64,000 bases of DNA from positions 96,001-160,000 of IMG/VR virus record IMGVR_UViG_3300029319_009044; one strand, written 5' to 3'. Below the pieces are notes generated by a model. The model did no database searches. It was not told where the DNA came from and was given only the letters and a program-made list of their open reading frames with translations. The stretch comes from a virus. Positions within the stretch are counted from its first letter, which is position 1; the number at the start of each line of letters is the position of its first letter. Made by a program: the position numbers and the translations under genes. Shown here in pieces: positions 9,725-60,063 of the stretch.

Positions 9725-10184
9725 GCTTTTAATTTTAGATGTAGATGGGGTACTTACAACAGGCTGTAAAACATATGACCTCGAAGGTAATGTTATTAGT
9801 AAGGAATTTAACGATAAAGACTTTACTGCAATAAAACGTTTTAAAGAGAAGGGATTAAAGGTATGTTTCTTAACTGCTGATGATAGAGTTAATCGTATAG
9901 TAGCAAAAAATAGAAATATTGATTTCTACTACGTAAGAGAAATGACTAAAAAAAATAAAGTTGAGACACTTCCTTATCTTACTAGTAAATATAAAGTTAC
10001 TTTAGATGAGATAGCATATATAGGTGATGATCTACCTGATTTTGATATTATAAAAAAATTAAAACATACTTACTGTCCAAGTGATGCAATACTAAAAATT
10101 AAAAACCAAGTTAAAACGATCCTCGAAAGAAGGGGTGGTACTGGAGTTATTGCAGAACTATATGATAATATATTTAATGAATAG
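9717..10184 (+). CDS. KdsC/YrbI-like HAD phosphatase
   Basis: LDVDGVLT, AYIGDDLPD, CPSDA, RGGTGVIAE motifs. Confidence 0.8.
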   Translation: MFKLLILDVDGVLTTGCKTYDLEGNVISKEFNDKDFTAIKRFKEKGLKVCFLTADDRVNRIVAKNRNIDFYYVREMTKKNKVETLPYLTSKYKVTLDEIAYIGDDLPDFDIIKKLKHTYCPSDAILKIKNQVKTILERRGGTGVIAELYDNIFNE

Positions 10185-10866
10185 TATCTCTCTATATGGG
10201 CATTTAACTACTGATACTATTTTTGATGGTAATACAACTTATAATTCGGTAGGAGGTTTAGGTAATGTATGGTTTATGTTATCTAAAATCTGTAAGAATT
10301 ATCAAGTAAATGTTGAGCCTACAAATGTTGGAGAAGCATTAATTTTAGTCAATAAAGATAAAGCAGAAAGATCATCAATAGCAAATTTAAATAAAATAAA
10401 AAGAACACCAGTCATTAAAGATTCAGAATGGTCACATATACTTTACGTAAATGAATTAGATGATATATCATTTATTAAAGATGTAAGAAATAAAAGTAAG
10501 ATAGTTTCTATAGATATTTGTAAAGGTAGACCATTTAAACAGTTTGATATTTTAAAATATATTGATTACTTTTTTATATCTGATGAAGATTTATTTATGG
10601 ATGTAAATGAGTTAGCTAAAAAAGTTAAGGGTTGGGTTATCTTACATCATAAAGGCGGTAGTAGTTGTTTAAGTAAAGATAAAGTATTTGATACATCTAC
10701 ACCAGTTATTGATGGTATAAATGTTTTAGGAGCAGGGGATATGTTTGCTGCAGCAACAATAAACTGCATTCTCAATACAGTTGATAAATCTAATTTGCAG
10801 TATAATATAAAAGAAGCGCACTCTATTACTTCAAAAATTTTAGCTGAAATAAATGAAAAAAACTAA
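10177..10866 (+). CDS. PfkB/ribokinase-family carbohydrate kinase
   Basis: VGGLGNV near the N-terminus and the C-terminal NVLGAGDMFAA signature. Confidence 0.75.
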   Translation: MNSISLYGHLTTDTIFDGNTTYNSVGGLGNVWFMLSKICKNYQVNVEPTNVGEALILVNKDKAERSSIANLNKIKRTPVIKDSEWSHILYVNELDDISFIKDVRNKSKIVSIDICKGRPFKQFDILKYIDYFFISDEDLFMDVNELAKKVKGWVILHHKGGSSCLSKDKVFDTSTPVIDGINVLGAGDMFAAATINCILNTVDKSNLQYNIKEAHSITSKILAEINEKN

Positions 10867-12019
10867 TATACTAATTCCTATAGCTGGTAGAGGTCAACGT
10901 TTTGTTGATCAAGGCTATGTAATGCCTAAACAACTTATAATGGTTGATGATAAGCAAATGATTGATTGGAGTTTAGATTCAATTCTTAAGAAAGAAGAAT
11001 GTAATCTTATATTTGCTATAAGAAGGGATCATATAAGTAACTTTTCATTAGATAAAATTTTAAAGAGTAGGTATGGAGATGATATTAAAATTATTATTAT
11101 AGATAAGATTACTAGAGGGTCAGTAGAGACCTGCTTACAAGCAGAAAAATATATTGATAATGATAATCCTTTAATAGTATATACTCTAGATGTTTTCTTT
11201 GAACCATCTTTTGATCCTACAAAAATAGATCATAATATTAATGGTTCAATTTTAACATTTAAAAGTAACAACCCTGCTTACAGTTATGCATCACTAGATA
11301 AAAATAAAAACGTAATAAAAACAGCTGAAAAAGAAGTTATCAGTGAAAATGCTGCTGTTGGTGTATATACGTTTACTAAAGGTAGTGAATTTGTAAAGTA
11401 TGCTAAGTTAATGATAGACTTAGATCTTACTACAAATAATGAATTTTATATTTGCCCATTATATAATTTAATGATTGAGGATGGTTGTACTATCAAGACT
11501 AAAGATGTAGAAAAAATGCATCTCATGGGAACGCCTGAAGAGCTAAATTTTTTCGTAACTCATACATTAAAAACTTTTGGTGATAAACCAATCGCTCTCT
11601 GTGCAGATCATTCAGGATGGGATCTTAAAGAACAAGCTAAATCTATTTTAGATAAATACGAGTTACCATATACTGATTTTGGTACTTTTGTTAATAAAGA
11701 TTGCGATTATAATGATTACGTTTTTCAGGTTACAGATTTTATTAATAAAGGTAATTGTGATTTTGCTTTAGCTTTTTGTAGAACTGGTCAAGGTATGAAT
11801 ATATCTGGTAATAAGCAAAAAGGTATCCGAAGTGCTTTAGTATTTAATGAATACACAGCTGAATATGCTGTTAGGCATAATTGCGCAAATTATTTTTCTA
11901 TACCAAGTAAATTTGTAGATAAAGAGTTATTAGATGATATGATTTATATCTGGATAACTACTACTTTTGATGGAGGTAGACATGCGACCCGTATTCAAAA
12001 AGCAGAAACTGGTAAGTAA
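10853..12019 (+). CDS. Sugar-phosphate nucleotidyltransferase fused to an RpiB/LacAB-type isomerase
   Basis: N-terminal IPIAGRGQRF...PKQLI...NNEFYICP...MGTPEEL; C-terminal ADHSG, DY.DY, CRTGQGMNISGNK, HNCAN, FDGGRH (RpiB). Confidence 0.85.
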   Translation: MKKTNILIPIAGRGQRFVDQGYVMPKQLIMVDDKQMIDWSLDSILKKEECNLIFAIRRDHISNFSLDKILKSRYGDDIKIIIIDKITRGSVETCLQAEKYIDNDNPLIVYTLDVFFEPSFDPTKIDHNINGSILTFKSNNPAYSYASLDKNKNVIKTAEKEVISENAAVGVYTFTKGSEFVKYAKLMIDLDLTTNNEFYICPLYNLMIEDGCTIKTKDVEKMHLMGTPEELNFFVTHTLKTFGDKPIALCADHSGWDLKEQAKSILDKYELPYTDFGTFVNKDCDYNDYVFQVTDFINKGNCDFALAFCRTGQGMNISGNKQKGIRSALVFNEYTAEYAVRHNCANYFSIPSKFVDKELLDDMIYIWITTTFDGGRHATRIQKAETGK

Positions 12020-12363
12020 TGGAAGTAAAGCATATAGATAATTTTACTAATGGTTGGTTTATTGGTGATTTTGAACCATCATTATTTAAAAATCCTTTTT
12101 TTGAGGTCGCTCATCAACACCATAAAAAAGGTAAAATAGGTGATAAACATTTTCATAAACTTACAACTGAGGTTACGTATATTGTTACTGGTTCAATGAA
12201 GATAAATGATCTTGCACTTAATAGAGAGCGATTTTTAAAAGCTGGTAATATGTTTACTTTCTTTCCTAACGAAGTATCTGATGTAGAGTTTTTAGAGGAT
12301 TCTGATCTTATAGTAGTAAGATGGCCATCTATACCTACTGATAAATATATGGTTGAACTATAA
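12019..12363 (+). CDS. Cupin-fold protein (putative sugar epimerase/isomerase)
   Basis: GWFIGDFEP, HFHK..TEVT cupin motif, PS.PTDKY. Confidence 0.65.
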   Translation: MEVKHIDNFTNGWFIGDFEPSLFKNPFFEVAHQHHKKGKIGDKHFHKLTTEVTYIVTGSMKINDLALNRERFLKAGNMFTFFPNEVSDVEFLEDSDLIVVRWPSIPTDKYMVEL

Positions 12364-12380
12364 TAACCAGTTACTATAAT
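12353..12380 (+). promoter_or_regulatory. Sigma70-like promoter
   Basis: TTGAAC-N16-TATAAT-N6-ATG(12387). Confidence 0.65.
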
Positions 12381-12386
12381 AATTGT

Positions 12387-13463
12387 ATGAAGAAAGCTTT
12401 AGTTTTAGGTGCCGGTGGCTTTATCGGTAATCATTTAGTATCACGTCTTAAAAAAGAAGGTTATTGGGTAAGAGGAGTTGATTTAAAAACTCCTGATTAT
12501 TGTGAATCTGAAGCAGATGAATTTATCTATGGTGCTGCTGGTGATTTAAGAGATCAAAATAACTGTAAACGTTTAGTAAAGTTTGATGGTGAGCAAGGTA
12601 ATTATTATAAAAGTGTACCTGAGCAATATAAAAGACCATTTGATGAAATTTATCAACTAGCTGCTGATATGGGCGGTGCTGGTTTTATTTTTACTGGAGA
12701 AAATGATGCTGATATTATGCATAATTCTGCTTCTATAAATCTTAATATTTTAAATGCAGTAAAAGAATTTAATGAACATAGATTTAATGATAATGTAGAT
12801 AATGCTGATGCATATAATAAAAGCAAAACTAATGACACTAAAATATTTTATAGTAGTAGTGCTTGTATGTATCCTGAACATAATCAGTTAGATCCTGATA
12901 ATCCTAATTGTGAGGAATCATCAGCATACCCCGCTAACCCGGATTCAGAATATGGTTGGGAAAAACTATTTAGCGAACGACTTTATTTAACTTATAATAG
13001 AAATCATGGCATACCAGTTCGCGTAGCTAGATTTCATAATATTTTTGGACCACTAGGTACATGGAATGGTGGTAGAGAAAAAGCACCAGCTGCTATTTGC
13101 AGAAAGGTAATTGAAAGTAGTGGTGAAATTGAAATATGGGGTGACGGAAAACAAACTAGAAGCTTTCTATACGTAGATGAATGTGTTGAAGGTATTAGAC
13201 GTTTAATGGATTCTGATTTTACTGGTCCTGTTAATATTGGTTCAGATGAAATGGTAACTATTAACGAGTTAGTAGATATAGCCTGTTCAGTAGAAAATAA
13301 ACAAATTACTAAAAAGCATATTGATGGTCCATTGGGTGTAGCTGGTAGAAATTCTGATAATAAGCTTATTAGTGAAAAGGTTGGCTGGGCTCCAAATTAC
13401 CCTTTAGCTAAAGGTATTGAAAAAACATATAAGTGGATTAAAGAGCAAGTTAATTTAAAATAA
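12387..13463 (+). CDS. GDP-mannose 3,5-epimerase-like NAD-dependent epimerase
   Basis: GAGGFIG, LAADMGGAGFI, SSSACMYP, YGWEK, RFHNIFGP, GGREKAPAAICRK, WGDGKQTRSF. Confidence 0.88.
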   Translation: MKKALVLGAGGFIGNHLVSRLKKEGYWVRGVDLKTPDYCESEADEFIYGAAGDLRDQNNCKRLVKFDGEQGNYYKSVPEQYKRPFDEIYQLAADMGGAGFIFTGENDADIMHNSASINLNILNAVKEFNEHRFNDNVDNADAYNKSKTNDTKIFYSSSACMYPEHNQLDPDNPNCEESSAYPANPDSEYGWEKLFSERLYLTYNRNHGIPVRVARFHNIFGPLGTWNGGREKAPAAICRKVIESSGEIEIWGDGKQTRSFLYVDECVEGIRRLMDSDFTGPVNIGSDEMVTINELVDIACSVENKQITKKHIDGPLGVAGRNSDNKLISEKVGWAPNYPLAKGIEKTYKWIKEQVNLK

Positions 13464-41254: not shown

Positions 41255-42190
41255 TTATTGCTTAGGTGTTTTGATATGAGGAACATCTACTTGACTTAAA
41301 GTATGATGTAAAAGCTTCTCATGGGATACACGCTCCGGATTAATATCAATACCACCACGTCGAGCATATAAACAACGAACAGCAAGCTCATCAGGTTCTA
41401 TAGCATCCATTAGTCTCTTATAAACAGCTTCACAAATTTCTTCATGAAAATGACATTCATCTCTAAAAGATACAATATATTGCAGCAAAGAGATAGGATC
41501 TACAGTATTTTTACCTTTCATATAGATATAAACATCACCCCAATCAGGCTGCGAGGTTACCCTACAATTAGATTTAAGAAGCGCACTATGATAATATACT
41601 TTTTCAGAAGGAGCGTCTTCTATCTCTCTTAGTAAGTTAGGATCTTCAGCATATACAGTAAATTCTACATCTTCAATAGGGTATTCATCTTCAAGAGTTA
41701 TATAACTCGGAGTACAATCTTCACCATGCATCCATTCTTTTTTAGCAGTAAACAAATTAGTATCAGATAATACGTATGCATTAGTATGAACTTTAACTTG
41801 AACTTTAGTTTCAAGCAATTTACTTAAGTCCTGAGAAGCAATATCACTAATATTTTTTAATACCTCATCAGTAGTTTCACCTAATCGAGTCATATTAAAC
41901 GAATTAAAATATAATTTAATAGATTTAGATTCTACAATATACTTACTACTACATGGATAAACTACTTTAGCTACACCAACTACAGGGAGACCATTTACAG
42001 TTAGAGCAGAAATTTCATACGCATTCCAAGTATCATAACCTAAAAAGGGAAGATTATTATCATCAATATTTAAATGAGTTCTATTAGACTGACGAGGCTC
42101 TTTAACTAAGAGCGTAGCATCATACTTTGATTTATACTTAGACGTCTGCCCAAGATGCTTACTAATATTGCTGTTATCAAGTTTTACCAT
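41255..42190 (-). CDS. queF: NADPH-dependent preQ0 reductase QueF (bimodular, YqcD type)
   Basis: DTWNAYEIS, QueF motif VESKSIKLYFNSFN, catalytic LKSNCRVTSQPDWG, FHEEICE, YARRGGIDINP; start moved to ATG 42190, 5 nt after a -10 box. Confidence 0.93.
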   Translation of the reverse strand: MVKLDNSNISKHLGQTSKYKSKYDATLLVKEPRQSNRTHLNIDDNNLPFLGYDTWNAYEISALTVNGLPVVGVAKVVYPCSSKYIVESKSIKLYFNSFNMTRLGETTDEVLKNISDIASQDLSKLLETKVQVKVHTNAYVLSDTNLFTAKKEWMHGEDCTPSYITLEDEYPIEDVEFTVYAEDPNLLREIEDAPSEKVYYHSALLKSNCRVTSQPDWGDVYIYMKGKNTVDPISLLQYIVSFRDECHFHEEICEAVYKRLMDAIEPDELAVRCLYARRGGIDINPERVSHEKLLHHTLSQVDVPHIKTPKQ

Positions 42191-42191
42191 A

Positions 42192-42785
42192 TTAAATTTT
42201 AATATCAATATTATAAGATTCAAGAGTACTCTTAATACATTCTAGTCTTTCCTCTACTGTACCTTTTAAAATTACTACTTTAGGACCATCTTTAATAAGA
42301 TCAAATTTCAAATACATATCAAAGAGACCAATAATATCATTACGAAATATATTATCAACACTTCTTTCACCATCATCTACTAGCTTAACATCCTTATGAC
42401 TAGTATAAAAAATAACATCATATTTGTTTATAAGCTTTTTATACATGAGATCACAAGCATCATAAGTAGCTCTATTAATTTTGCCTTTATTTAAAAGATA
42501 ATGACTATAAACTATACCATCTAATGCACATCTATCAAATATTTGATGAACTCCTCTTAAAAGACGATCAGCTCCACCTCTAAAAATATTTCTAACATGC
42601 TCAGTCATTATAAGCAGTTGAGTCAGATCATTGCCGCTTTCATTGATATGCATATTATATTCTCTTTTAATTAACCTTGTAACTTCAGGAACAAACTCAA
42701 ACGGATACATACCGTTCTCTTTATACAAATGCTTAAGTAAAGTAGTTTTACCTGTACACTGAGCTCCAGTAAACGAAAAGATCAT
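42192..42785 (-). CDS. P-loop nucleotide kinase-like protein (AAA_28 type)
   Basis: TGAQCTGKTT, DRCALDGIVYS, YDVIFY, DDGERS. Confidence 0.7.
   Translation of the reverse strand: MIFSFTGAQCTGKTTLLKHLYKENGMYPFEFVPEVTRLIKREYNMHINESGNDLTQLLIMTEHVRNIFRGGADRLLRGVHQIFDRCALDGIVYSHYLLNKGKINRATYDACDLMYKKLINKYDVIFYTSHKDVKLVDDGERSVDNIFRNDIIGLFDMYLKFDLIKDGPKVVILKGTVEERLECIKSTLESYNIDIKI
42196..42223 (-). promoter_or_regulatory. Sigma70-like promoter of queF
   Basis: TTGAAT-N16-TAAAAT-N5-ATG(42190) on the minus strand. Confidence 0.6.
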
Positions 42786-43342
42786 ACCTTATTATATAAA
42801 CGTTCCTTTAGAAAACTACCCCAAGTTGCAAGAGAAGTTGATCTTAAAGCACTATACATTTCATCTAATGTTAATATATTAGCTGTAGAAACTTCAGAGT
42901 ATGTATCAATTTCACCTGCATCTACTTCTTCTACTACCTTATGCACAACACTACCTACCATATCATACTTATGAATATCTGCCCACGCTCTTTGCTGCGG
43001 GTCTTTTCCTTTAAGTTCAGGGTATTTAGTTATAAGACCTGGATGACCGTTATAGATGTTATACTTAGCGCATTTATCTGGAGGCACTATTCGAAGCCAA
43101 CCATTTAAAGTTATCAATGTATCATCTGCAGATTCTACAACCTCGTCTAAGATATCTAAGGTTTTAGCCTCTTTACCAAAAGTAGTTAACCATCGATATT
43201 CTACGCCTTTCAGAATATTAAAAATATTACTTGGATGGTTATTCGAAATAATAAGATCAGGTACTCTATTTATTTGATTTGATATATCTATTATTTCTTG
43301 ACCTGTTTGAGAAAATAATGCAATCCAATTATTATACTTCAT
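42782..43342 (-). CDS. PurN-like formyltransferase (candidate preQ1 formyltransferase, DpdN-like)
   Basis: ALFSQTG, LNGWLRI, YNGHPG, GSVVHKV..EVDAGE formyltransferase motifs; cotranscribed with the kinase and queF. Confidence 0.75.
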   Translation of the reverse strand: MKYNNWIALFSQTGQEIIDISNQINRVPDLIISNNHPSNIFNILKGVEYRWLTTFGKEAKTLDILDEVVESADDTLITLNGWLRIVPPDKCAKYNIYNGHPGLITKYPELKGKDPQQRAWADIHKYDMVGSVVHKVVEEVDAGEIDTYSEVSTANILTLDEMYSALRSTSLATWGSFLKERLYNKV

Positions 43343-43722
43343 TATAAATATTCTAATGCCAAATAATTAATTAGCAAGTGTATGGTATTATCACAAGCTA
43401 CTAATAACCAAAGTGAAAGCCATTGTGGTACTTCTTTATGGTAACCTGTTTCTTTACAATCTTCCCACTTATGCCAATATTTTTTAGGGCTAAGGCGACT
43501 TTTAGCAAACACTACATAACGCGCTAATCTAAATCTATCAATTAAAAAATGAGTAATACAAATTACCGCAAAAGCTTCTAAAGAAGGGCATAATATCAAG
43601 AAAGGTAAAGAGTATGTGATCGCATGCGCTGCAGCTGCTTTACTACACTTCGTTTTATTAAGTGCCATCCAATCGCTCTGAAGAAGATAGTCACCAATTA
43701 GATGGAGTATTAACTGGAGCAT
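43342..43722 (-). CDS. DUF3307-like membrane protein
   Basis: HLIGDYLLQSDWMA.NK, H...HFLIDR, DNTIH. Confidence 0.7.
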   Translation of the reverse strand: MLQLILHLIGDYLLQSDWMALNKTKCSKAAAAHAITYSLPFLILCPSLEAFAVICITHFLIDRFRLARYVVFAKSRLSPKKYWHKWEDCKETGYHKEVPQWLSLWLLVACDNTIHLLINYLALEYL

Positions 43723-43779
43723 TTATTTATTATTTTATACAAGGAAGCATAATTTTCAAGGTGTATATTAAATAATTTT

Positions 43780-44061
43780 GTGGAAGAGTTTTTTAAGCTA
43801 GTAACAGAAGTAGGATTTCCAATAGCAGGTGCTGTTGTATGTGGAGGTTTTGTATTTATTATTTTAAAATTTATATTGAGTGAGATAACTAGCTCAGTAA
43901 AAGGATTAGGGAGTATGATTAAATCATTAGAAAATAGAGTTCAAACTATGAATAACGATATAGTAAAAATTGATACTTTAGTTTCTTATGCTTTTAATAA
44001 ACAACCTAATTTAGATAGACTAGCAGCTAACGAAGGGAAGGAGGATGCAAGAAAAGACTAA
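43780..44061 (+). CDS. Small single-pass membrane protein with coiled coil (GFPI motif)
   Basis: EVGFPIAG + hydrophobic helix + LENRVQTMNNDIVKID; TAAATA-N5-GTG upstream. Confidence 0.7.
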   Translation: MEEFFKLVTEVGFPIAGAVVCGGFVFIILKFILSEITSSVKGLGSMIKSLENRVQTMNNDIVKIDTLVSYAFNKQPNLDRLAANEGKEDARKD

Positions 44062-44360
44062 TGACTGATACTATTGTAAAAATAATAAATGATTTTGGTT
44101 TTCCCATTTTTGCAGCTTTTGGGTTAGGATATTTTGTTTACTATACTTGGAATTGGGTAGTAAAAGAAATAAAGCCTGTATTAGATGAATCTACAGGAAC
44201 TTTGATAGGGCTTATCGATAGAATAAGAATGTTAGATAATGATATGATTAGACTTAACACTAAGATTCAAATGATACTACAGGAAAAAGATAGAATTAAA
44301 GAATTAGAAAAAAAAGAAAATCGAAGAAAAAATACACATATTTTAGATACTAAGCTCTAG
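44061..44360 (+). CDS. Small single-pass membrane protein, paralog of the preceding gene
   Basis: DFGFPIFA + hydrophobic helix + LIDRIRMLDNDMIRLN. Confidence 0.7.
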   Translation: MTDTIVKIINDFGFPIFAAFGLGYFVYYTWNWVVKEIKPVLDESTGTLIGLIDRIRMLDNDMIRLNTKIQMILQEKDRIKELEKKENRRKNTHILDTKL

Positions 44361-44390
44361 CCATATATATTAATAGAGGTAAATAGAGTT

Positions 44391-44855
44391 ATGAAGTGTT
44401 TATGTTTCTTAATACTTTTATGTAGCAGTAGTCTAGCTAATGAATTAACATTTAGGTTTAAATCTCCTTCATTTAGTGGTATTGGATACAGTGCGCATAA
44501 AATAAATCTAGAAAATATATCTGCGGCCAGAAAGAAAACAATTAGAGATGAATTAAAATCATTAGAAATTCAAGCTAATTTAGCTGCCCAGAGAACTCCA
44601 TTGAATGTATTTATGACAAATTTACAGTCAAGGATTTATTCAGAGCTCTCTAAACAGGTTACAGAGCAGCTATTTGCTGATACTGGTTCTGATTCAGGTT
44701 CTTTTAATCTTGATGGTAATACTATATCATGGTATAGATTAGCTGACCAAATAAATCTGACAGTAACTGATACTGATGGTGATCTTACTAACATATTAAT
44801 TCCTATTGGATCACTTCTATTACCTGAGCCAACTAATGAAACAACTACTGAATAG
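44391..44855 (+). CDS. csgF: Curli assembly protein CsgF-like
   Basis: Signal peptide then ELTFRFKSPSFSG, F..NLQSRIYSELS..V...LF, GSFNLDG, I.LTVTD..G..T.I.IP. Confidence 0.8.
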   Translation: MKCLCFLILLCSSSLANELTFRFKSPSFSGIGYSAHKINLENISAARKKTIRDELKSLEIQANLAAQRTPLNVFMTNLQSRIYSELSKQVTEQLFADTGSDSGSFNLDGNTISWYRLADQINLTVTDTDGDLTNILIPIGSLLLPEPTNETTTE

Positions 44856-45720
44856 TCTTTTAAGTTTAACACTTTTAAGCGGTTGCGCAACTTTTAATGA
44901 TAGTGAACTTAATAAACCTCCTATCGTAGCTCCAACCCCTTTAAAAAATAAATTAACTACTATACCAGAATTAGATGGTGAGCCTATTTATATTGGAGTT
45001 AATAGCTTTAAAGACTTAACTGGAGCAAGAAAACAAGCTGATAATTATGCAAGTTTCTCTTCTGCAGTTACTCAAGGTGGTGAAGCATGGTTAATTGAAT
45101 CTCTCTTAGAGTCAAATGGTTGGTTTAAAGTTTTAGAAAGAGGTCAATTAGATACAGTAATGAGAGAAAGAGCTTTAGTTCAACAAACTAGAGAAGACTT
45201 TACTGATGATGATGAAACTGGATTAAAACCTTTATTATTTGCTGGATTGCTTATACATGGAGGAATTATAAGTTATGATACTAATATGATTTCTGGTGGT
45301 GTGGGAGCTGCCTACTTAGGTATAGGTGCTCATGAACAGTACAGGAAAGATGTAGTTACTGTATCATTAAGATTAGTGAGTACGTTAACTAGTGAGATTC
45401 TTTTATCTTCAACTGTATCAAAAACTATATACTCAACCTCACTAGGATCAGATGTATTTAAATTTGTTAACCAAGCTTTAGATTCACTTGAATTTGAAAT
45501 AGGATATGCTAAAAATGAGCTAGTATCGGTAGCTACTAGAGCAGCTATAGATTTAGCTATTTTAGATTTAATTGAAAAAGGAGAAAAAAATAAAATGTGG
45601 AAATTTAAAAAGAGCACTGTAAAAAAATTACCTAAAATAACTGAAAAAGAACAAGTTAAAAAAGAACCATTAAGTAAAAATAAGAAATATAAGTCTTCGT
45701 TTAATAAAATAAAAAGATAG
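44836..45720 (+). CDS. csgG: Curli secretion channel CsgG-like lipoprotein
   Basis: Lipobox LSGC; FKDLTG.RK, SSAVTQGG, WFKVLERG.LD....ER, GGIISYDTN..SGG.GA.YLGIG...QYR.D.VTVSLR.VS; start moved to ATG 44836. Confidence 0.92.
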   Translation: MKQLLNSLLSLTLLSGCATFNDSELNKPPIVAPTPLKNKLTTIPELDGEPIYIGVNSFKDLTGARKQADNYASFSSAVTQGGEAWLIESLLESNGWFKVLERGQLDTVMRERALVQQTREDFTDDDETGLKPLLFAGLLIHGGIISYDTNMISGGVGAAYLGIGAHEQYRKDVVTVSLRLVSTLTSEILLSSTVSKTIYSTSLGSDVFKFVNQALDSLEFEIGYAKNELVSVATRAAIDLAILDLIEKGEKNKMWKFKKSTVKKLPKITEKEQVKKEPLSKNKKYKSSFNKIKR

Positions 45721-45739
45721 ATTTTTAATAAATAATTTT

Positions 45740-46570
45740 ATGAACATAAAATCTATTTTAACAGCTATTCTTTTATCTAGTGGTTTAGTATTCTCTTCAA
45801 ATGAAATTTACTTAGATCAGATAGGTAGTGCAGGTATATTTAATATATCTCAAATTGGATCTAGTAACAAATTAGGAGAAGGTAATAATCGATCTAGAAT
45901 TGAAGGAGAAGAAGTTATTTTTAATGTAGCAACTATAGGTAATGAAAATTTAATAGATATTGACTCTATAGGAAATGAAGAAGTAGTAAATCTTCAAGTA
46001 GAAGGCGATGCTAATGACTTTATTTTAGCTCTTGAAGGTGATCAAAATACTGTAAATGCTTTTGTAGCAGGAGATACTAACAGCATTTTAATTGCAGGAG
46101 ACCAGGAAGATACACAAAAAGCTACTGTAAATAATGGATTAATAAATTTAAATGTTGAGGGTGCTTCAAATGATATAGAGTTATTACTATTTGATACATC
46201 ATATACTTTTACAGATTATTTTATTGGTGGCTCTTTAAATACCATTAGCTCTTATCAAGAAGGTCATGGTGGTTTAATTGGACATTCACAACTAGTTGAT
46301 GTTTTTGGTAGTAGTAATAATTTATTAATATCTCAAGTAGGTTCTGAAAGTCAATTTATTGAGCTCTCAGTTTTAGGAAATGAAAACACATATCAAATAT
46401 ATCAAACAGATGGAAGCTTTGATCCATCATTCATGCCTGAGCAAATTGGTAACGAGGTTAACCCAGTTAACGATTTTTCAAATCCCGATGGTATTCCAAA
46501 AGTTCCAACACTTGTTATCGAGCCACGTCCATTATTACTCGAAGGTATTGTTCTCGAACAGGGTCAGTAA
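45740..46570 (+). CDS. Secreted curlin-like beta-solenoid protein (CsgA/CsgB-like)
   Basis: Signal peptide; NEIYLDQIG...ISQIGSSN and ~11-residue x-x-G-x-x-N periodicity throughout. Confidence 0.7.
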   Translation: MNIKSILTAILLSSGLVFSSNEIYLDQIGSAGIFNISQIGSSNKLGEGNNRSRIEGEEVIFNVATIGNENLIDIDSIGNEEVVNLQVEGDANDFILALEGDQNTVNAFVAGDTNSILIAGDQEDTQKATVNNGLINLNVEGASNDIELLLFDTSYTFTDYFIGGSLNTISSYQEGHGGLIGHSQLVDVFGSSNNLLISQVGSESQFIELSVLGNENTYQIYQTDGSFDPSFMPEQIGNEVNPVNDFSNPDGIPKVPTLVIEPRPLLLEGIVLEQGQ

Positions 46571-47471
46571 TATAGTTCTTATAATAAGTTTTATCTTATT
46601 ACCTATACTTGCTTACGCTGACATAGGCAGTGTAACGTCTCAAACTAAAGCAGCTAGAATTACCCGTAAAGGGGATAAATTTCTTACTGAAGTTAATACT
46701 TTAGTTGAAATGAGAGATTTAATTGAAACCTTAAAAGGTAAGGCTAATATAAAATTTATAGATGATACTAAAGTAAGTGTCACGGAATATTCTAAACTTG
46801 TAATAGATGAATTTGTTTATAACCCAGAAAAGAAAACAGGTAAACTATCGTTAAAAGCAGCATTAGGTACTATAAGATATTCTTCAGGTAAAATTGCTAA
46901 GAATTCTCGACAAAATGTAAAGATAAAATCTCCAACTGCTTCAGTTACTGTTAGAGGTACTGATTTTACTATGAATGTTCAAGAAGATGGAGCTAGTAGT
47001 TTTCTATTATTACCATCAAAGGATGATGCTGGTAACTCATTTGTTGGATCTATAGATGTTTCAACTCTTGGAGGTACTGTTACTTTAAATAAAGCGTATC
47101 AAGCAACTACTGTTACTTCAGCTATAGCAGCACCAACACCACCGCAAGTTATACAACAAGATGGTCCTCAAGTAAAGAAAGATAAAAATAAAAAAGAAAA
47201 TATAGAAGAAGATACAAAACCAGAAGATGATGAAAAACAACAAGATTTTGAAGATATTAAAATAAAGAGAAAAGAAAAGAAAGCCAAAAATGCTTTTTTA
47301 AAAATGGATGATGGGAGATATGTTTTCTTTTCTAAAGATAAAGATAATATTATTTCTCTTATAGTAGAAGATGGTAGCAACGTTACAGTAAATTATGATA
47401 ATAGAGGCAGTATTATTAACGCTAAGATGAACTCAGGTAATAACGTACAATTTAACATAAAACAACAATGA
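46380..47471 (+). CDS. FecR-domain periplasmic protein (true start probably ~46488-46548)
   Basis: Signal-like IVLIISFILLPILAYA; D.IET..G...I.F.DDT...VTEYSKL.IDEF.Y, GTIRY.SG.I, IKSPTASVTVRGTDF. Confidence 0.8.
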   Translation: MKTHIKYIKQMEALIHHSCLSKLVTRLTQLTIFQIPMVFQKFQHLLSSHVHYYSKVLFSNRVSNIVLIISFILLPILAYADIGSVTSQTKAARITRKGDKFLTEVNTLVEMRDLIETLKGKANIKFIDDTKVSVTEYSKLVIDEFVYNPEKKTGKLSLKAALGTIRYSSGKIAKNSRQNVKIKSPTASVTVRGTDFTMNVQEDGASSFLLLPSKDDAGNSFVGSIDVSTLGGTVTLNKAYQATTVTSAIAAPTPPQVIQQDGPQVKKDKNKKENIEEDTKPEDDEKQQDFEDIKIKRKEKKAKNAFLKMDDGRYVFFSKDKDNIISLIVEDGSNVTVNYDNRGSIINAKMNSGNNVQFNIKQQ

Positions 47472-49525
47472 AATTTTTTAATATAAATGCTTATGCAATA
47501 TGCTTAGCAGTTACTGTAGTTATGGTTCTATTAAGAATATTTGATCCTTTTTTTATAGAAACTGCTCGACTTAAAGGTATAGACTATTATCAAAATAAAC
47601 AAGAAAAAGTTATATCAGAAAATATAGCTATTATTGAAATTGATGAGAATAGTTTAGATGAATATGGTCAGTGGCCTTGGAATAGAAGTTTGATTGCTGG
47701 GGGTATAGCAAAAGCTTTTGAAAGTGGAGCTCAATTAGTAGTGGTACCTATTTTATTTGCAGAAAAGGATAGACTTGGAGGTGATAAAGACTTAGTAAAT
47801 TTATTAAGCGAAGCACCAGTTATTATAGGCCAATCAGCAAGTACAAAAGGTAAAGGATCTCCAGTTCCAAGAGGATTAGCTACTATTGGTGAACCGTTAG
47901 GAGACTGGCTTTATGATTACCCTGAAGCTATAGGACCTGTAAAAGAGTTAGGAGAAGTTGCTGCTGGAGTAGGTATGATACTAACAGCTCCAGAATTAGA
48001 TGGAGTAGTTAGAAGAATGCCTTTAGTTATTCAAATAAAAGGTGAAGCATACCCTACTATACCTTTAGAAGTTATAAGATTATTTTCAGGTGAGCAATCT
48101 TATCAGGCTAAAGTTGGTTTAGGCGGTGTTGAAGCTATAAGAGTTCCAGGATTTGATCCTATAGCTACTGACGAAAACTCTAGAGTTTGGCTCAATTTTA
48201 AATATAATTTTAATAAAGTATCTTTTAATGAAACTGATTGGTCAGTAGTTAAAGATAAAATTGCTGTTATAGGGTTAACAGGGGAAGGTTTAGCTAATAC
48301 AGTAGCTACTTCAACAGGTATAAGCTATGGACATGAAATTACTAGCCAAGCTTTACAAATGCTAATTGATGAATCTAGATTACAAAGACCTACTGAATCC
48401 ACTATATTAGAAGTAATTATTACAGCATCATTCTGCTCGCTTCTTATCATTGGAGCTCTCTGGTTATCCTATAAGTTTAGCTTAGTATTAATAATAGCTT
48501 CTTTAGCTGCTGGACCATTTATCGGAAATATCTTTTATAATAATAATGGTTGGTTAATAGATTATACTTGGCCTTTTGCATGTATATTTGTTACCTGGGC
48601 TTGTGCAACATTCATAAGATTTATTAATGAAAGCAAATCTAAACAACAGATAAAGAAACAATTTGAACATTATCTTGCTCCTCCCATAGTTAAATTATTG
48701 CAAAAGGATCCTACATTACTAAAGCTTGGAGGCGATACTAGAGAGTTATCTATATTGTTTAGCGATTTAAGAGGGTTTACTTCTATAAGCGAACATTTTA
48801 AAAGCAACCCTCAAGGTTTAACGGAATTAATAAACAGATACCTTACTCCGATGACAGGGTGTGTTATAGATCACAATGGTACAGTAGATAAATTTATTGG
48901 TGATGCTTTAATGGCCTTTTGGAATGCACCGTTAGATGTAAAAGACCATAGAGAAAAATCTATATACTGCGGTATAAAAATGTTTGATTTACTAGCTAAA
49001 CTTAATAAGGAAGTAATTAACGAAGGTTTAGATGAATTAAAAATAGGGGTAGGTATTAATACTGGTGATGTAGTAGTAGGTAATATGGGATCAGAACAAC
49101 GGTTTGACTATACATGTTTAGGCGATGCAGTAAATTTATCTTCTAGATTAGAAGGTCAGACAAAAGATTATAGAGTAGGTATCATAGTGGGTGAAGGAAC
49201 AGTAAAAGGAATAGAAGATAGATTTAAATTTGTAGAATTAGATAAAATAGCAGTCAAAGGAAAAGAAGAAGGGGTAAGAATTTACACCATTTTAAATAAT
49301 ACATCTAGATGTGCTAATGGAGGCGATGTAACTCATCATAATACATTCTTAACATTCTATAGAAAACAACACTGGAATAGAGCATTAAAAATGATTGATT
49401 TAAATCAAATTACATACCCGGAGTTAAAAGGTTATTATGAAATGATGAGAGAGAGAATAGAAACTCTCAAAGTTAATAAGCCTGGAAAAGGTTGGGATAC
49501 AATTTATAGAGCTACTTCGAAATAA
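47468..49525 (+). CDS. CHASE2-domain membrane adenylate cyclase (class III)
   Basis: IDE.SL..YGQWPWNR, DGVVRRMPL, three TM helices; LFSDLRGFT, DKFIGDALMAFW, GINTG...VGNMGS, DYT.LGDAVNLSSRLE, VKGK. Confidence 0.93.
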   Translation: MKFFNINAYAICLAVTVVMVLLRIFDPFFIETARLKGIDYYQNKQEKVISENIAIIEIDENSLDEYGQWPWNRSLIAGGIAKAFESGAQLVVVPILFAEKDRLGGDKDLVNLLSEAPVIIGQSASTKGKGSPVPRGLATIGEPLGDWLYDYPEAIGPVKELGEVAAGVGMILTAPELDGVVRRMPLVIQIKGEAYPTIPLEVIRLFSGEQSYQAKVGLGGVEAIRVPGFDPIATDENSRVWLNFKYNFNKVSFNETDWSVVKDKIAVIGLTGEGLANTVATSTGISYGHEITSQALQMLIDESRLQRPTESTILEVIITASFCSLLIIGALWLSYKFSLVLIIASLAAGPFIGNIFYNNNGWLIDYTWPFACIFVTWACATFIRFINESKSKQQIKKQFEHYLAPPIVKLLQKDPTLLKLGGDTRELSILFSDLRGFTSISEHFKSNPQGLTELINRYLTPMTGCVIDHNGTVDKFIGDALMAFWNAPLDVKDHREKSIYCGIKMFDLLAKLNKEVINEGLDELKIGVGINTGDVVVGNMGSEQRFDYTCLGDAVNLSSRLEGQTKDYRVGIIVGEGTVKGIEDRFKFVELDKIAVKGKEEGVRIYTILNNTSRCANGGDVTHHNTFLTFYRKQHWNRALKMIDLNQITYPELKGYYEMMRERIETLKVNKPGKGWDTIYRATSK

Positions 49526-50533: not shown

Positions 50534-51685
50534 ATGTACGTAAGAGGTTCAGATAAAAATGTTGAATATAAAAGAGATCTAAATGGATTTTTTAGAGGTA
50601 TAGTAGTTTCTGATTTTGATCCATTATATTTACAAAGAGTAAAAATTTTTATACCTGAAATAACTAATATTGAAACTGGGGCTGATATGAATCAATTTAT
50701 TGCTCCTGATAAAGACGGGTCTATAAAGCCTAATTTTCATCAAAAATTACTAGATCTGCTCCCATACGCTGAGCAAGCTTCTGGGTTATGGGGTGAAAGA
50801 GGGGTTAGTCATTATAGCGCTAAAGAAAAAAGCCAAGTTAGTAAAGCAACATACGTAGAAAATAATACACGAAATAAAGTACCTAATAGTAAAGATGGTG
50901 GAGTTTATCCTCGCATGACTATAGCTAATAGAGATAATACTGGAGCTGGTTCTTCAATTGATGATTTTGCAAATATTAATCCAAATGCAGCAAGTTATAT
51001 ACCCGTCAATTCTGGACCACTAACTAGTGGATTTTATGGTGTGCCATCAGTAGGAAGTAAGGTGTGGTTATTTTTTGAACGAGGGGATATTAATTTACCA
51101 ATTTATTTTGCATCATGTCCTAATATGAAAGAGACTATGCAAGTAACTAAAGATGGTACATCAGGTGCACCCGCAGGGTACAGTACAGATTATAATCCAC
51201 AGGGTGCAGAGGATACTCCGCCAGAACCATTAGGTGCTAGAGTTGTACCTGGTCAAGATGTCCCTGGTACTGATCTTACAGAATTTGTAAAAGAATTTGA
51301 AGGTTATAATCCAAATTCTTATTGGGATTATGGGCAATATTCTATAGGCTATGGTACTAAAGCTAAACCTGGAGAAACAACTATTACACAAGAAGAAGCA
51401 ACTAGTAGATTAAATTCAGAACTTAGTGAAGCTAGAGGATATGTTGAACGTTATAATGCTTCTCAAAATAGAAATTGGTCTGAAAATCAAATAGATGCTT
51501 TAACTTCTTTTACTTATAATACAGGACCAGGTAACTTACAGACTTTATTACAAGGAGGTAATCGTAACAATCAACAAGTTGCAGAGGCTATGCTTTTATA
51601 TAAGAAAGCAGGTGGTAAGACTTTAAGAGGATTAGTAAGAAGAAGGCAAGCTGAACGTCAATTATTTTTAGAAGGTTATAGTTAA
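50534..51685 (+). CDS. Baseplate spike gp5 N-terminal part: OB-fold plus GH24-type lysozyme
   Basis: FRGIVV..DP..LQRVKIFIP and VPSVGSKVWLFFE.GD...PIYF (gp5 OB fold); KEFEG...YSIGYG...GLVRRR.AE..LF (lysozyme). Confidence 0.85.
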   Translation: MYVRGSDKNVEYKRDLNGFFRGIVVSDFDPLYLQRVKIFIPEITNIETGADMNQFIAPDKDGSIKPNFHQKLLDLLPYAEQASGLWGERGVSHYSAKEKSQVSKATYVENNTRNKVPNSKDGGVYPRMTIANRDNTGAGSSIDDFANINPNAASYIPVNSGPLTSGFYGVPSVGSKVWLFFERGDINLPIYFASCPNMKETMQVTKDGTSGAPAGYSTDYNPQGAEDTPPEPLGARVVPGQDVPGTDLTEFVKEFEGYNPNSYWDYGQYSIGYGTKAKPGETTITQEEATSRLNSELSEARGYVERYNASQNRNWSENQIDALTSFTYNTGPGNLQTLLQGGNRNNQQVAEAMLLYKKAGGKTLRGLVRRRQAERQLFLEGYS

Positions 51686-51686
51686 T

Positions 51687-53423
51687 ATGAATAAGGAAGC
51701 ATTAGAAGCAAATCAAGATTTATATAAAAATAAAGCTGTATTTAATCAACGTGGAGGTTCATTAGAGTTTAATAATTCTACTGGAGAAGAGAGTATATAT
51801 CTAACTAATTATCACGGTAGTAATATAAAAATTACACCGCAAGTTACTTCAGAATATGCTAAAGAGAATAAACAGCTTTTGGTGGTTAATGATAATTTTG
51901 AAACAGTTAGAAACGATAAGCATTTATCTGTAGGTGGTAATTATGTTAAAAAAGTTACAGGTTCTACAGTATATCAAAGTGGCTTTTCTAACGAAGAGCA
52001 AATTAAAGCTATAGAAGATTGGAAAGAAGAGTATAGACCTGTAGCTGAACGTAATTCAATGTTTGCTATTCAACGTGGAGGAGAGAGTTATCCTAATGGA
52101 GTTGTAACTCCTAAATCAGGTACAAAGAGTCAAAATCCTTCTAAAAGTCAAGAAATTTATTTGAATGAAGATCAAGGCTTTCCTTCTACAAATGCTTCTA
52201 GTTCTGAAGTTAATAGTAGTAGCAATCAAGTAAATTCTTATTCAAATTATAATGTTCAACCCTCTCGTAGAGTAGTTCTCAACCCTTCGGTAGCTGATTA
52301 TGGTGACGATGAGAATCCGGCTACAGAAGGAGGAAGTTTTGACCCTACTATTGAAAAAGAAAAATTAGATGAAGAAATAACGAGACTACAAGAAGAAAAA
52401 TTAACTGATTTAGAACTTAAAGCATTTGGCGATGGTCCTAATGTAGGTGGAGATGATCAAGAGTTTACTTTTAGAAATAAAGTTATTATGGTTGGAGCTA
52501 CTTTTAATGATTATCCATCTATTAGATTTGATGATACAGGAAGATCGACTCCAGGAAGAGTAACTGTAGGTACACATGCAGGTGCGTATGTAGATGTAGA
52601 GTCAGTTCCTCATGTAGAAGAAGTTGATAATAGTAAATTTCCAGTTGGTAACTATACTGTACAGGCAGCTAACAAATATAATATTAGTGTAGGTTCTGGG
52701 GGTATAGATGTAAAAACTACTGGACCTGTCGAAGTAGGTGCTACAAGTTATAAACTAGCTGCCCATAAAGTTACTATTAACTCTTCTAAAGGTATACATA
52801 TAGGTAGTGAAAATTTAGTTGAAATAAATTCTTTAAAAAATATTTCTCTTCGCTCTAATAAACAAATTTATATCGAACCAGGATTAGGAGTTAAAAATAA
52901 TTTAATAGTTGGTGGAGGTAGCTATCTTCAAGGAGAAACTTATTTACATCATGTAACTGCTCCTGCAGAGTTACAACAAACAGAAGATACAACAGTATTT
53001 GGTAAATTAGTAAATGGGTTAAAATTTAGAGCTGATATAGATTTAGGATTTCCTCTAGGTACTATTCGTAATTGTCCTATAACTATTAGATCTAGTGATA
53101 ATGATATAATAGAAATGGTTCCTCATTCACATCACTTTAAAAATCTACCTTTAAGATTAACAGAATCTGGAGCTAATATAAGAGAGATGGCTAGTGCTGA
53201 AGATATAAATGTAGATGGTTTTAGTACACCAGCATTGCCTATAGGACATGGAAAAAAGAATCCTAGTACTACTCCAGCTGCTCCTATACCATTAGAACGA
53301 GAAAATGAAAGTACCTTGCTACCTCATGATAGAAGAAGAGTTACTATTGATGGTGATATAAAACCGCCTTTTCCTCAGGTTGAAAAAGATGGTTCTTTTG
53401 CTAAAGAAACGCCTACTAATTAG
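51687..53423 (+). CDS. Baseplate spike gp5 C-terminal beta-helix-like protein
   Basis: GGSLEFNNSTGEESI.L....GS, then V.ND.F.TV.ND.HL.V.GN beta-helix repeats; HSHHF near the end. Confidence 0.65.
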   Translation: MNKEALEANQDLYKNKAVFNQRGGSLEFNNSTGEESIYLTNYHGSNIKITPQVTSEYAKENKQLLVVNDNFETVRNDKHLSVGGNYVKKVTGSTVYQSGFSNEEQIKAIEDWKEEYRPVAERNSMFAIQRGGESYPNGVVTPKSGTKSQNPSKSQEIYLNEDQGFPSTNASSSEVNSSSNQVNSYSNYNVQPSRRVVLNPSVADYGDDENPATEGGSFDPTIEKEKLDEEITRLQEEKLTDLELKAFGDGPNVGGDDQEFTFRNKVIMVGATFNDYPSIRFDDTGRSTPGRVTVGTHAGAYVDVESVPHVEEVDNSKFPVGNYTVQAANKYNISVGSGGIDVKTTGPVEVGATSYKLAAHKVTINSSKGIHIGSENLVEINSLKNISLRSNKQIYIEPGLGVKNNLIVGGGSYLQGETYLHHVTAPAELQQTEDTTVFGKLVNGLKFRADIDLGFPLGTIRNCPITIRSSDNDIIEMVPHSHHFKNLPLRLTESGANIREMASAEDINVDGFSTPALPIGHGKKNPSTTPAAPIPLERENESTLLPHDRRRVTIDGDIKPPFPQVEKDGSFAKETPTN

Positions 53424-58627: not shown

Positions 58628-59368
58628 TTATTTATTCAAAGCTGCTTCTAAGGCACTTCTTAATTTAGCTTCTGCTTTAGAACCTATATCATCTTTTCTT
58701 CCGGGGGATATTTCTCTGTGTGTGGTAACAGTAGATAAATCTTTAGGCCATCCCCATTTTTCAAATCTCGGCACTAACCACTCTACAGCAGATGCAACTT
58801 CGTCATCAGTAAGCTCTCTAGTATTAGTATTACCACTGAAAGCTAATCCAAGTAAAAACCCATTACAATTAGTTCTTCCATTGAAATTAGATTTACCTGC
58901 ATGCCAACATCTACGATCATCATCTGCAAAAATTGTTCTTTCTCCATTAGTATCTATAATGCAGTGATACGATACTTGAGACTTCGTTTGACATATCCAA
59001 CTTACTGATCCAGCATAAGATCCTGAAGAATGATGTAATACCACACCTTCAGGTCTAATTCTAGATGAAGATATATTAGGTGAAGGTTTACTTACTTCTG
59101 GGTATGTTCCGTCGACGGCACTTGATGCGACCTCAACCACTGCGGGTTGTTTACTTAAGCCTAACGCTTCTGAAATAGTTTTTGCTGTGTTAGGTCCATA
59201 AGCACCATCTGGAAGGGAATCTGTTTTTTTCTGAATAATTTTAGTAAGTTCTTCTTTAGTAAATCCTAGCTTACTTATAATTTTTAACGCAGTATTCTTA
59301 CCATAAATACCATCAGCTGTAGCGCCTACAGCTTCTTGAATCTTTTTAGTAGTTTCTTTTAATGACAT
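58628..59368 (-). CDS. Endolysin: peptidoglycan-binding repeats plus N-acetylmuramoyl-L-alanine amidase (Amidase_2)
   Basis: Two DG.YG.NT PG-binding motifs; VVLHH, SYH..I, WHAG, N, TTHREISPGRKDD. Confidence 0.88.
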   Translation of the reverse strand: MSLKETTKKIQEAVGATADGIYGKNTALKIISKLGFTKEELTKIIQKKTDSLPDGAYGPNTAKTISEALGLSKQPAVVEVASSAVDGTYPEVSKPSPNISSSRIRPEGVVLHHSSGSYAGSVSWICQTKSQVSYHCIIDTNGERTIFADDDRRCWHAGKSNFNGRTNCNGFLLGLAFSGNTNTRELTDDEVASAVEWLVPRFEKWGWPKDLSTVTTHREISPGRKDDIGSKAEAKLRSALEAALNK

Positions 59369-59424
59369 AAAAGTATTTATTAAAAAAGTTGTAAAATATA
59401 CTATGTATGATAAATACTTTTATG
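59366..59424. promoter_or_regulatory. Perfect 15-bp inverted repeat forming divergent late promoters
   Basis: CATAAAAGTATTTAT (59366-59380) and ATAAATACTTTTATG (59410-59424), each ending in a start codon. Confidence 0.75.
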
Positions 59425-59676
59425 GATATGATACTAGAATTCATTAGTGACAAACCTTGGTTTGGTCTTATAGCCGCAATTATTGCTGCAGCAGCTGCCT
59501 TTTGTGCAGCTACTCCAACACCTAAAGAGGGTGGTTGGGTGTCTAAAGTCTATAAAGTTATAGAGTTTTTGGCACTTAACATTGGAAAAGCTAAAGCTAA
59601 AGCAGAAGTTAAAGAAGCTGTAACTGATGCAGTAACTGACGCTGTTAAAAAGGCTACTACCAAAAAGAAGAAGTAA
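59422..59676 (+). CDS. Putative holin-like membrane protein
   Basis: Hydrophobic A-rich helix, ATPTP...YK.IE.LALNIGKAK, basic C-terminus; next to the endolysin; start moved to 59422. Confidence 0.55.
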   Translation: MDMILEFISDKPWFGLIAAIIAAAAAFCAATPTPKEGGWVSKVYKVIEFLALNIGKAKAKAEVKEAVTDAVTDAVKKATTKKKK

Positions 59677-59687
59677 CTAATAAGCAA

Positions 59688-59960
59688 ATGGGTGGCGGCA
59701 TTATTAAAGGAGTCTTAAGAGCCTTAACTGCATATTTAGAGTTAAGGAATAAGACTCATTATCACCGTGTCGTTACAGAATCTCGTGATAAACAAAAAAA
59801 ATTAATAAATGAAATTGAAACATTACGCACTGCTGGCGACGTCGATTCTAATGATAGGGCTGACATCTTGCGGGACGAGCTCCTCGACGAAAAGCGGCAC
59901 CTTGAACATTTATCAGCCTTCTACATTAAATCTTGCGGCGGGGATACCGATCCAGAGTAA
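59688..59960 (+). CDS. Coiled-coil protein, candidate i-spanin-like partner
   Basis: Overlaps the downstream lipoprotein in another frame; lacks a clear TM helix. Confidence 0.4.
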   Translation: MGGGIIKGVLRALTAYLELRNKTHYHRVVTESRDKQKKLINEIETLRTAGDVDSNDRADILRDELLDEKRHLEHLSAFYIKSCGGDTDPE

Positions 59961-60063
59961 AGCTGGAGTATACACCCCACAGACTGATGAAGTATGGCAT
60001 TCAGATACTCGTTTCAGAAAGCTTGAAAGGCAGCTATACTTTAAACCCACATCAGGTAAATAG
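59809..60063 (+). CDS. Lipoprotein, candidate o-spanin
   Basis: MKLKHYALLATSILMIGLTSC lipobox; overlapped in the lysis cluster. Confidence 0.6.
   Translation: MKLKHYALLATSILMIGLTSCGTSSSTKSGTLNIYQPSTLNLAAGIPIQSKAGVYTPQTDEVWHSDTRFRKLERQLYFKPTSGK

Follow-up and report, generated by a model that had tools for sequence, protein, structure and literature searches.

A conserved phage gene block joins a curli exporter to a FecR–CHASE2 pair, a possible curli-coupled sensor making cyclic AMP

What would a T4-like phage do with a curli secretion pore and a membrane adenylate cyclase encoded in one block of genes? The question is raised by a 64,000-nucleotide stretch of DNA from an uncultured marine virus (hereafter the window, bases 96001–160000 of the 170,908-base, 81%-complete record IMGVR_UViG_3300029319_009044), with a G+C content of ~30%, from a record whose T4-type portal, major head, sheath-stabiliser and helicase proteins mark it as a T4-like virus. 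Seven contiguous open reading frames (ORFs), co-oriented on the plus strand like every feature of the block described below in window coordinates, encode two small membrane paralogs, a CsgF homolog, the outer-membrane pore lipoprotein CsgG, a secreted curlin-repeat protein, an exported protein of FecR fold and a class III adenylate cyclase fused to a CHASE2 receptor. The initial annotation had listed the same ORFs at the same coordinates and had read them as a complete outside-to-cytoplasm signalling chain installed late in infection; Pfam matches, comfortably exceeding their cut-offs for CsgF, CsgG, FecR, CHASE2 and Guanylate_cyc, and structural searches agree with its gene names, whereas two of the start codons (TTG 44806 for CsgG and 46380 for FecR) are most likely to be replaced by later ones. 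The reading we lean towards, with modest confidence, is that the block joins a curli exporter to a FecR–CHASE2 envelope sensor pair and acts as a curli-coupled sensor that makes cyclic AMP (cAMP).

The block is a further copy of an already known element, the viral type VIII secretion system (T8SS, curli) region of pelagiphages. In pelagiphages, i.e. phages of SAR11, of the families Podoviridae and Myoviridae, Wittmers et al. 2022 (PMC9599517) found the region complete, as one or two genes labelled 'HK', CsgF, CsgG, CsgA/B, FecR, a second CsgA/B and an adenylate cyclase ('AC'), and reported alphaproteobacterial origins, transfer between virus families as a unit, a global distribution, expression in metatranscriptomes and a share of ~0.1% among the viral proteins assembled from ocean viromes worldwide; FecR was treated there as an iron regulator. 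Zaragoza-Solas 2020 (PMC7029224) and Buchholz 2022 (PMC9004378) describe CsgF/CsgG only and leave FecR and the cyclase unmentioned, and the block is annotated in Pelagibacter phage HTVC008M (KC465899) and Methylophilales phage Melnitz (MZ577097). The initial annotation mentioned that csgF and csgG are known from marine myophages, but it overlooked that the whole cluster, with FecR and the cyclase, had been published as well. What is added here, from sequence comparison, is the strict synteny of the block, the pairing of FecR with CHASE2 in bacteria and, within our sample, the phage-specific joining of the two modules.

Synteny was assessed by scanning viral contigs for relatives of the block, which returned at least 457 when centred on the cyclase and at least 584 when centred on CsgG. 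From the cyclase side, 137 unique loci were fetched, and CsgF, CsgG and FecR were present in 71/71 of those informative for the question, with ≥6 kb upstream of the cyclase. From the CsgG side, FecR together with the cyclase was present in 41/41 informative loci, with ≥5.5 kb downstream of csgG, and CsgF was found upstream of csgG in 77/77 phage loci. Conservation of FecR and the cyclase beside csgFG was the check that the initial annotation had named for its proposal, and in related phages the genes proved to be always linked. This gene order persists at 35–55% protein identity, and identities this low (down to 35–45%) argue that it does not merely reflect recent common descent. On this comparative evidence the seven genes are one conserved, integrated unit. 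The distance from FecR to the cyclase varies between 0 and 4.8 kb among phage loci, the space being taken up by cargo genes. In Melnitz and HTVC008M, the phage collection's sole related isolates (~40% protein identity in the block region), a second curlin-repeat gene stands between FecR and the cyclase and so interleaves both modules; it is frequent elsewhere without being universal and is absent from the block in the window. As a side observation, the second curlin-repeat protein of HTVC008M (locus positions 9193–10518) carries a PA14 (carbohydrate-binding/adhesin) domain ahead of its curlin repeats.

Bacterial counterparts show the two halves of the block apart. From the cyclase side, 80 bacterial loci were fetched, 10 of which look like phage contigs binned into metagenome-assembled genomes (MAGs), several carrying the full module or the small paralogs; the other 70 were counted. 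A FecR-domain ORF lies beside the CHASE2 gene in 44 of these 70 loci, spread over several phyla, and CsgG/CsgF were detected by hidden Markov model in 0/70. The bacterial FecR partners often carry TbpB/FHBP-type lipoprotein barrels, are large proteins of 800 amino acids (aa) or have an OmpA-family neighbour. Published cases point the same way: a CHASE2 cyclase clusters with a FecR outer-membrane protein in Campylobacterota (PMC9239204), Burkholderia has a LysM-FecR and CHASE2 kinase operon (PMC5192318), and in S. meliloti the outer-membrane protein NsrA feeds the CHASE2 cyclases CyaD1/D2/K, in a system with Clr (PMC13001267), deletion of CHASE2 rendering CyaD1 constitutive in cAMP production (PMC5498481). 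A FecR-domain protein with a CHASE2 receptor is therefore a real and widespread bacterial sensor pair, and its presence in the phage block is credible. From the curli side, a CsgG-based scan of bacterial genomes returned two loci only, both on phage-type contigs within MAGs, and a CsgG-family match was found in 52 of 401 alphaproteobacterial genomes. At seven curli-type alphaproteobacterial loci csgF and curlin-like genes adjoin csgG, and the phage-derived curlin profile matches these neighbours; neither FecR nor a cyclase was found within ~9 kb of csgG at any of the seven. Since these curli operons lack FecR and cyclase and the FecR–CHASE2 pairs lack CsgG/CsgF, the joining is phage-specific in this sample, and the phage block is, by gene content, a fusion of two modules that occur apart from each other in all bacteria sampled.

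Two further observations concern these bacterial loci. In Hyphococcus and Parvularculaceae, an 800-aa protein directly upstream of the CHASE2 cyclase (e.g. locus positions 7522–9945) has an N-terminal FecR domain followed by a long unannotated remainder, and may represent an outer-membrane type of FecR partner. Separately, module-bearing contigs occur in MAGs labelled Bacteroidetes, Flavobacteriaceae, Legionellales, Pirellulales, Rhodobacteraceae, Synechococcus and Neomarinimicrobiota; most of them also hold the small paralogs, and they are most likely phage contigs wrongly binned.

The exporter genes were assigned individually. The CsgF homolog (44391–44855; phrog_35372) has a signal peptide and is assigned by its Pfam profile only (CsgF, E 5e-18), as phmmer matched no CsgF chain in the PDB. 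CsgG (44836–45720; Pfam E 5e-50) aligns with E. coli CsgG at E 2e-40 over residues 5–260 (256 residues) and, at the pore constriction, retains F56 and has Ser in place of N55. Its start is probably ATG 44836 rather than TTG 44806, and from this ATG the protein has the lipobox LLSGC. CsgE (PF10627) had no match across the 171-kb record, in line with the absence of csgE stated in the initial annotation. The 276-aa product of the next gene (45740–46570) has no Pfam match of its own, although its Melnitz and HTVC008M counterparts exceed the Pfam Curlin_rpt cut-off. An alignment of 36 phage homologs displays the QxGxxN curlin periodicity, and the profile of this phage family matches the solved CsgA of Pontibacter (8c50, E 1e-14) and that of E. 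coli (8enq, E 2e-3). Its AlphaFold model, with a mean predicted local distance difference test score (pLDDT) of 84, is a strand-turn-strand solenoid; Foldseek returned weak beta-helix matches only (best E 0.075) and missed CsgA, whereas VIA, a search independent of Foldseek, gave 8c50 as the best structural match (Z 19.1). The secreted curlin-like solenoid of the initial annotation is thus, by profile and model, a genuine curlin-repeat beta-solenoid and a predicted CsgA/B-like fibre subunit. Curlin subunits are therefore present in this type of locus, contrary to the Melnitz paper (PMC9004378).

The FecR-fold protein (46488–47471; Pfam FecR, E 3e-9) likely starts at ATG 46488 or at the alternative TTG 46548. 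It consists of a signal peptide ending in AYA (the mature protein beginning DIGSV), a FecR/PupR-type domain, a disordered, charged linker (model residues 207–245) and a 58-residue C-terminal beta domain of paired 7-residue strands, modelled at a pLDDT of 83 overall and >94 in the FecR domain. Foldseek gave borderline E-values with this model, and the match to PupR became clear after re-alignment by VIA: the N-terminal domain superposes on the PupR C-terminal signalling domain CCSSD (6ovk_R) with Z 15.5 and a root-mean-square deviation of 2.4 over 129 residues, and on BDI_1681, a Bacteroidetes anti-sigma factor (4m0n), with Z 14.5. Neither a cytoplasmic anti-sigma part nor a transmembrane (TM) anchor was found in the protein, its cleavable signal peptide running straight into the FecR domain. 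The small C-terminal domain has an invariant Gln in its terminal GxxNxIxIxQ motif and matches the final two repeats of curlin in register (hhalign probability 43%, E 2.5e-4), and its profile had no match in the PDB; the resemblance to curlin repeats is suggestive only.

The last gene of the block (47468–49525) encodes a 685-aa protein with CHASE2 (Pfam E 1e-35) and Guanylate_cyc (E 7e-21) domains. The cyclase domain aligns with a solved cyanobacterial cyclase domain at E 7e-40 and keeps all six residues of the class III (IIIb) catalytic set, namely the metal-binding D433 and D479, the substrate residues K475 and T549, and N556 and R560 for the transition state. All of these had been pointed out in the initial annotation, and the enzyme looks catalytically competent. 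The CHASE2/3TM/cyclase architecture proposed there stands as to its two named domains and only roughly as to the three TM segments, the protein having one N-terminal TM helix and a hydrophobic block at about 313–385.

The arrangement of the seven genes and the short motifs before them suggest how the block is expressed. The genes starting at 43780, 44391 and 45740 each have TAAATA exactly 5 nt ahead of the start codon (motifs at 43769–43774, before the GTG of small membrane protein 1; 44380–44385, before csgF; and 45729–45734, before the curlin gene), just as the initial annotation had it, and the same motif stands at structural genes. Across the window, 13 of 61 gene starts have TAAATA at −11/−12, including those of the portal, neck, two giant fibre genes, amidase endolysin and holin-like gene (examples are 18535, 20752, 22434, 25826 and 63564, and 27557, 34430 and 58628 on the minus strand). 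As the background frequency is ~1 per kb per strand, and only 6 occurrences fall at all other positions ≤40 nt upstream of starts, the expected count at −11/−12 is 0.1 to 0.4, and chance falls far short of explaining the enrichment at this fixed distance. In T4 the late promoter reads TATAAATA, and a gp55-type late sigma factor is encoded in the record just outside the window; a late promoter is therefore the likely reading of TAAATA. In its exact form TATAAATA shows no enrichment across the window, with 10 occurrences where 21 are expected, and it is the shorter TAAATA, at its constant spacing from start codons, that carries the information; a scan of the region for sigma-70 promoters and terminators gave background level. 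TAAATA is thus probably a late promoter and the block, as predicted from sequence, probably late-expressed. Together with the gene overlaps, the motifs set off three units: the paralog pair (joined as TAATG), csgF–csgG (20-nt overlap) and curlin–FecR–cyclase, in which the cyclase start overlaps the FecR stop by 4 nt as ATGA. Furthermore, if TAAATA acts like a T4 late promoter 5–6 nt before the start, transcription would initiate on the start codon or very close to it, and late mRNAs would be leaderless or nearly so, with no space for a Shine-Dalgarno sequence.

On this basis we hypothesize that two modules would operate together. The first would be an alphaproteobacterial-type curli exporter made up of the CsgG lipoprotein pore, CsgF and the curlin-repeat subunit; the second would be an envelope sensor pair of the secreted FecR-fold protein and the CHASE2 membrane adenylate cyclase, with the small paralog pair travelling along. 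Late in infection, CsgG, CsgF, curlin and the FecR protein would be exported by the Sec pathway, and curlin would leave through CsgG/CsgF to form fibres on the infected cell. The FecR domain would remain periplasmic and bind the CHASE2 domain of the cyclase, while its C-terminal curlin-like strands might tether the protein to the pore or the fibre. The resulting cAMP would report an envelope state tied to secretion, to the fibre or to entry through a pore that has no CsgE gate. The outside-to-cytoplasm chain of the initial annotation is in this form plausible and only partly supported: the conserved unit, the FecR–CHASE2 pair and the competent-looking cyclase speak for it, while its cAMP output finds no cyclic nucleotide monophosphate (cNMP)-binding domain in the phage record.

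Several results weigh against this sensor. The missing receiver is the first of them, as the 81%-complete phage record has no cNMP-binding domain, and SAR11 genomes offer little in its place: such a domain is present in only 6 of 121 genomes of the SAR11 family (Pelagibacteraceae), leaving 115 without. Three near-complete cultured Pelagibacter genomes likewise have none, and a class III cyclase domain was matched in 3 of the 121 genomes, one match containing 7 in-frame TGA codons. Provided that the window's phage infects SAR11 at all, it would import a second messenger that its host lacks the usual means to detect, and the cAMP receiver is then probably not a host CRP. In addition, the closest true bacterial cyclases (Alphaproteobacteria, 30–36% identity) mostly lack an adjoining FecR gene, and the Melnitz cyclase (locus positions 10566–12617) has Ser at the catalytic Asn (GDSVSTAARIE), an Asn that HTVC008M, like the window's phage, retains. 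Lastly, some podophage versions of the region have FecR without the cyclase (PMC9599517), and FecR may therefore serve the secretion system itself. Apart from its bearing on function, the Ser in Melnitz matters for the choice of an experimental model.

The podophage versions lead to the explanation that survives best beside the curli-coupled sensor, although we regard it as rather unlikely: two functions may simply travel together, FecR being a periplasmic adaptor or gate of CsgG that replaces CsgE and the cyclase a separate enzyme of host takeover, its CHASE2 domain responding to some general cue in the periplasm, so that no information would pass from pore to cyclase. The absence of CsgE from the record fits this view, as do the variable FecR-to-cyclase gap with its cargo genes and the published finding that FecR always follows the curlin gene while the cyclase is only 'frequently' present (PMC9599517). 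Against these stand the FecR–CHASE2 adjacency kept across bacterial phyla without any T8SS, from which it follows that the usual partner of FecR is CHASE2, the 4-nt FecR/cyclase overlap in the window's block and the 100% co-occurrence in both directions among myophage loci. Moreover, alphaproteobacterial curli operons manage without CsgE and also without FecR, which speaks against FecR as its replacement.

A more elaborate form of the sensor, which we consider quite improbable, makes FecR a tether across the outer membrane. The curlin-like strands at its C-terminus would pass out through CsgG and be templated into the base of the fibre, its disordered, charged linker would thread the pore and its FecR domain would sit on CHASE2 in the periplasm. 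The assembly of the fibre, its load or a contact such as aggregation or adsorbing virions would in this way be turned directly into cAMP, to be read, in a host without a cAMP system of its own, by a non-canonical receiver encoded by the phage, for which the always-linked small paralogs would be the obvious candidates.

These small proteins, of 93 aa (43780–44061) and 99 aa (44061–44360, its start overlapping the preceding stop), are paralogous (BLASTP E 8e-13, 26% identity) and belong to one phage family of unassigned function (phrog_18771), defined by a conserved GFPI motif, one TM helix and an L.DR.R.LDND.IRL motif in a coiled-coil tail. Among the phage loci, the pair lies upstream on the same strand in 27, downstream of the cyclase on the opposite strand in 14, and was not found in the locus in 8. 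Wittmers et al. 2022 (PMC9599517) name them 'HK', a histidine kinase label that can be ruled out: HisKA/HATPase or any other kinase domain gave no Pfam match even at E 10, and no alignment column among 114 family members exceeds 30% His, leaving no conserved phospho-acceptor. For protein 2 the closest cluster in the ESM Atlas bears the automatic name 'Holin family protein' (0.97), with YvrJ at 0.87, a lead only. Tested as a holin/antiholin pair, the proteins each have one TM helix, and an amidase/holin-like/spanin-like cassette is encoded 14 kb away.

That lead enters a further explanation, in which the block is a lysis-timing device: CsgG/CsgF would be a gated pore or pinholin, the small paralogs holin and antiholin, and the cyclase would set the time. 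It unites what Buchholz et al. 2022 proposed from Melnitz synteny (PMC9004378) with the analogy to T4 lysis inhibition drawn in the initial annotation, and it gains from the late-type motifs and from the resemblance of the small TM proteins to holin-like clusters in the language-model search. We nevertheless find it highly improbable. A conventional lysis cassette is located at 58.6–60.1 kb (58628–60063), with an Amidase_2 endolysin on the minus strand (58628–59368) and, divergent from it, an 89-aa holin-like TM protein and a 90-aa protein with an embedded 84-aa lipoprotein (a spanin-like pair); this separate cassette weakens both the lysis-timing idea and the casting of the pore or the small paralogs as lysis machinery. 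Furthermore, a true curlin substrate is encoded, so that the pore has a secretion job. The neighbouring 'lysozyme' gene just downstream of the block does not help either, being part of a gp5-type baseplate hub split over two ORFs (50534–53423), the first with an OB domain and a phage lysozyme domain and the second with the gp5 C-terminal trimerisation domain; a PHROG match of 50534–51685 to an endolysin was rejected for this reason. The T4 analogy finds no direct support, although the block may still modulate lysis. Finally, iron or cofactor uptake through a CsgE-less pore importing siderophores or cofactors, with FecR as an iron regulator, is an idea of Wittmers et al. 2022 (discussed in PMC9599517) that draws on the Pfam name FecR and the absence of CsgE and seems scarcely tenable, because the FecR protein lacks the N-terminal cytoplasmic anti-sigma part, the 81%-complete record has no match to the STN domain of TonB-dependent transducers and no extracytoplasmic function (ECF) sigma factor (the sole Sigma70_r2 match being the gp55-type late sigma), and bacterial FecR proteins of the same kind pair with CHASE2 receptors rather than with iron transport.

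Directly upstream of the block and divergent from it, the minus strand (41255–43722) encodes GTP cyclohydrolase-like, thymidylate-kinase-like, formyltransferase-domain and DUF3307 membrane proteins.

The block matters because it ranks with the most widespread accessory modules found in phages of the ocean's most abundant bacteria. Treating FecR and CHASE2 as a borrowed bacterial sensor pair, and not as an 'iron regulator', yields a concrete and testable hypothesis, and the near-absence of cAMP receptors and cyclases from SAR11 sharpens the question into one of what reads a messenger that only the phage brings. Two published labels are corrected along the way, in that the small proteins are not histidine kinases and curlin subunits are present.

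Compared with known systems, the block is most like the pelagiphage viral T8SS region, with the same genes in the same order and proteins 35–48% identical to those of the two isolates. It differs from HTVC008M and Melnitz in lacking the second curlin-repeat gene, FecR and the cyclase overlapping by 4 nt instead, and the pelagiphage T8SS papers make no mention of the CHASE2 domain, of the bacterial FecR–CHASE2 pairing or of late promoters. With alphaproteobacterial curli operons it shares adjacent CsgG, CsgF and curlin-repeat genes and the lack of CsgE, a gate of the gammaproteobacterial type only, whereas the FecR protein, the CHASE2 cyclase and the small GFPI paralogs are found in the phage block and at none of the seven alphaproteobacterial loci. 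As in bacterial FecR–CHASE2 pairs, an exported FecR-domain protein adjoins a CHASE2 receptor, in bacteria often with a class III cyclase and often linked to the outer membrane; those pairs, however, lack CsgG/CsgF and come with cAMP receptors or phosphodiesterases, whereas the phage record has no cNMP-binding domain. T4 lysis inhibition, in which the RI antiholin senses superinfection, has no component homologous to the block, and the window's phage has a separate lysis cassette; the two have in common only the idea of envelope sensing by a phage at a late stage of infection. The FecA–FecR–FecI and PupB–PupR systems share with the block the fold of the periplasmic domain and the logic of an outer-membrane signal relayed inward; unlike them, the phage FecR protein has no cytoplasmic anti-sigma domain and no TM anchor, the record shows no ECF sigma and no TonB-dependent transducer, and the output of the relay would instead be a cyclase.

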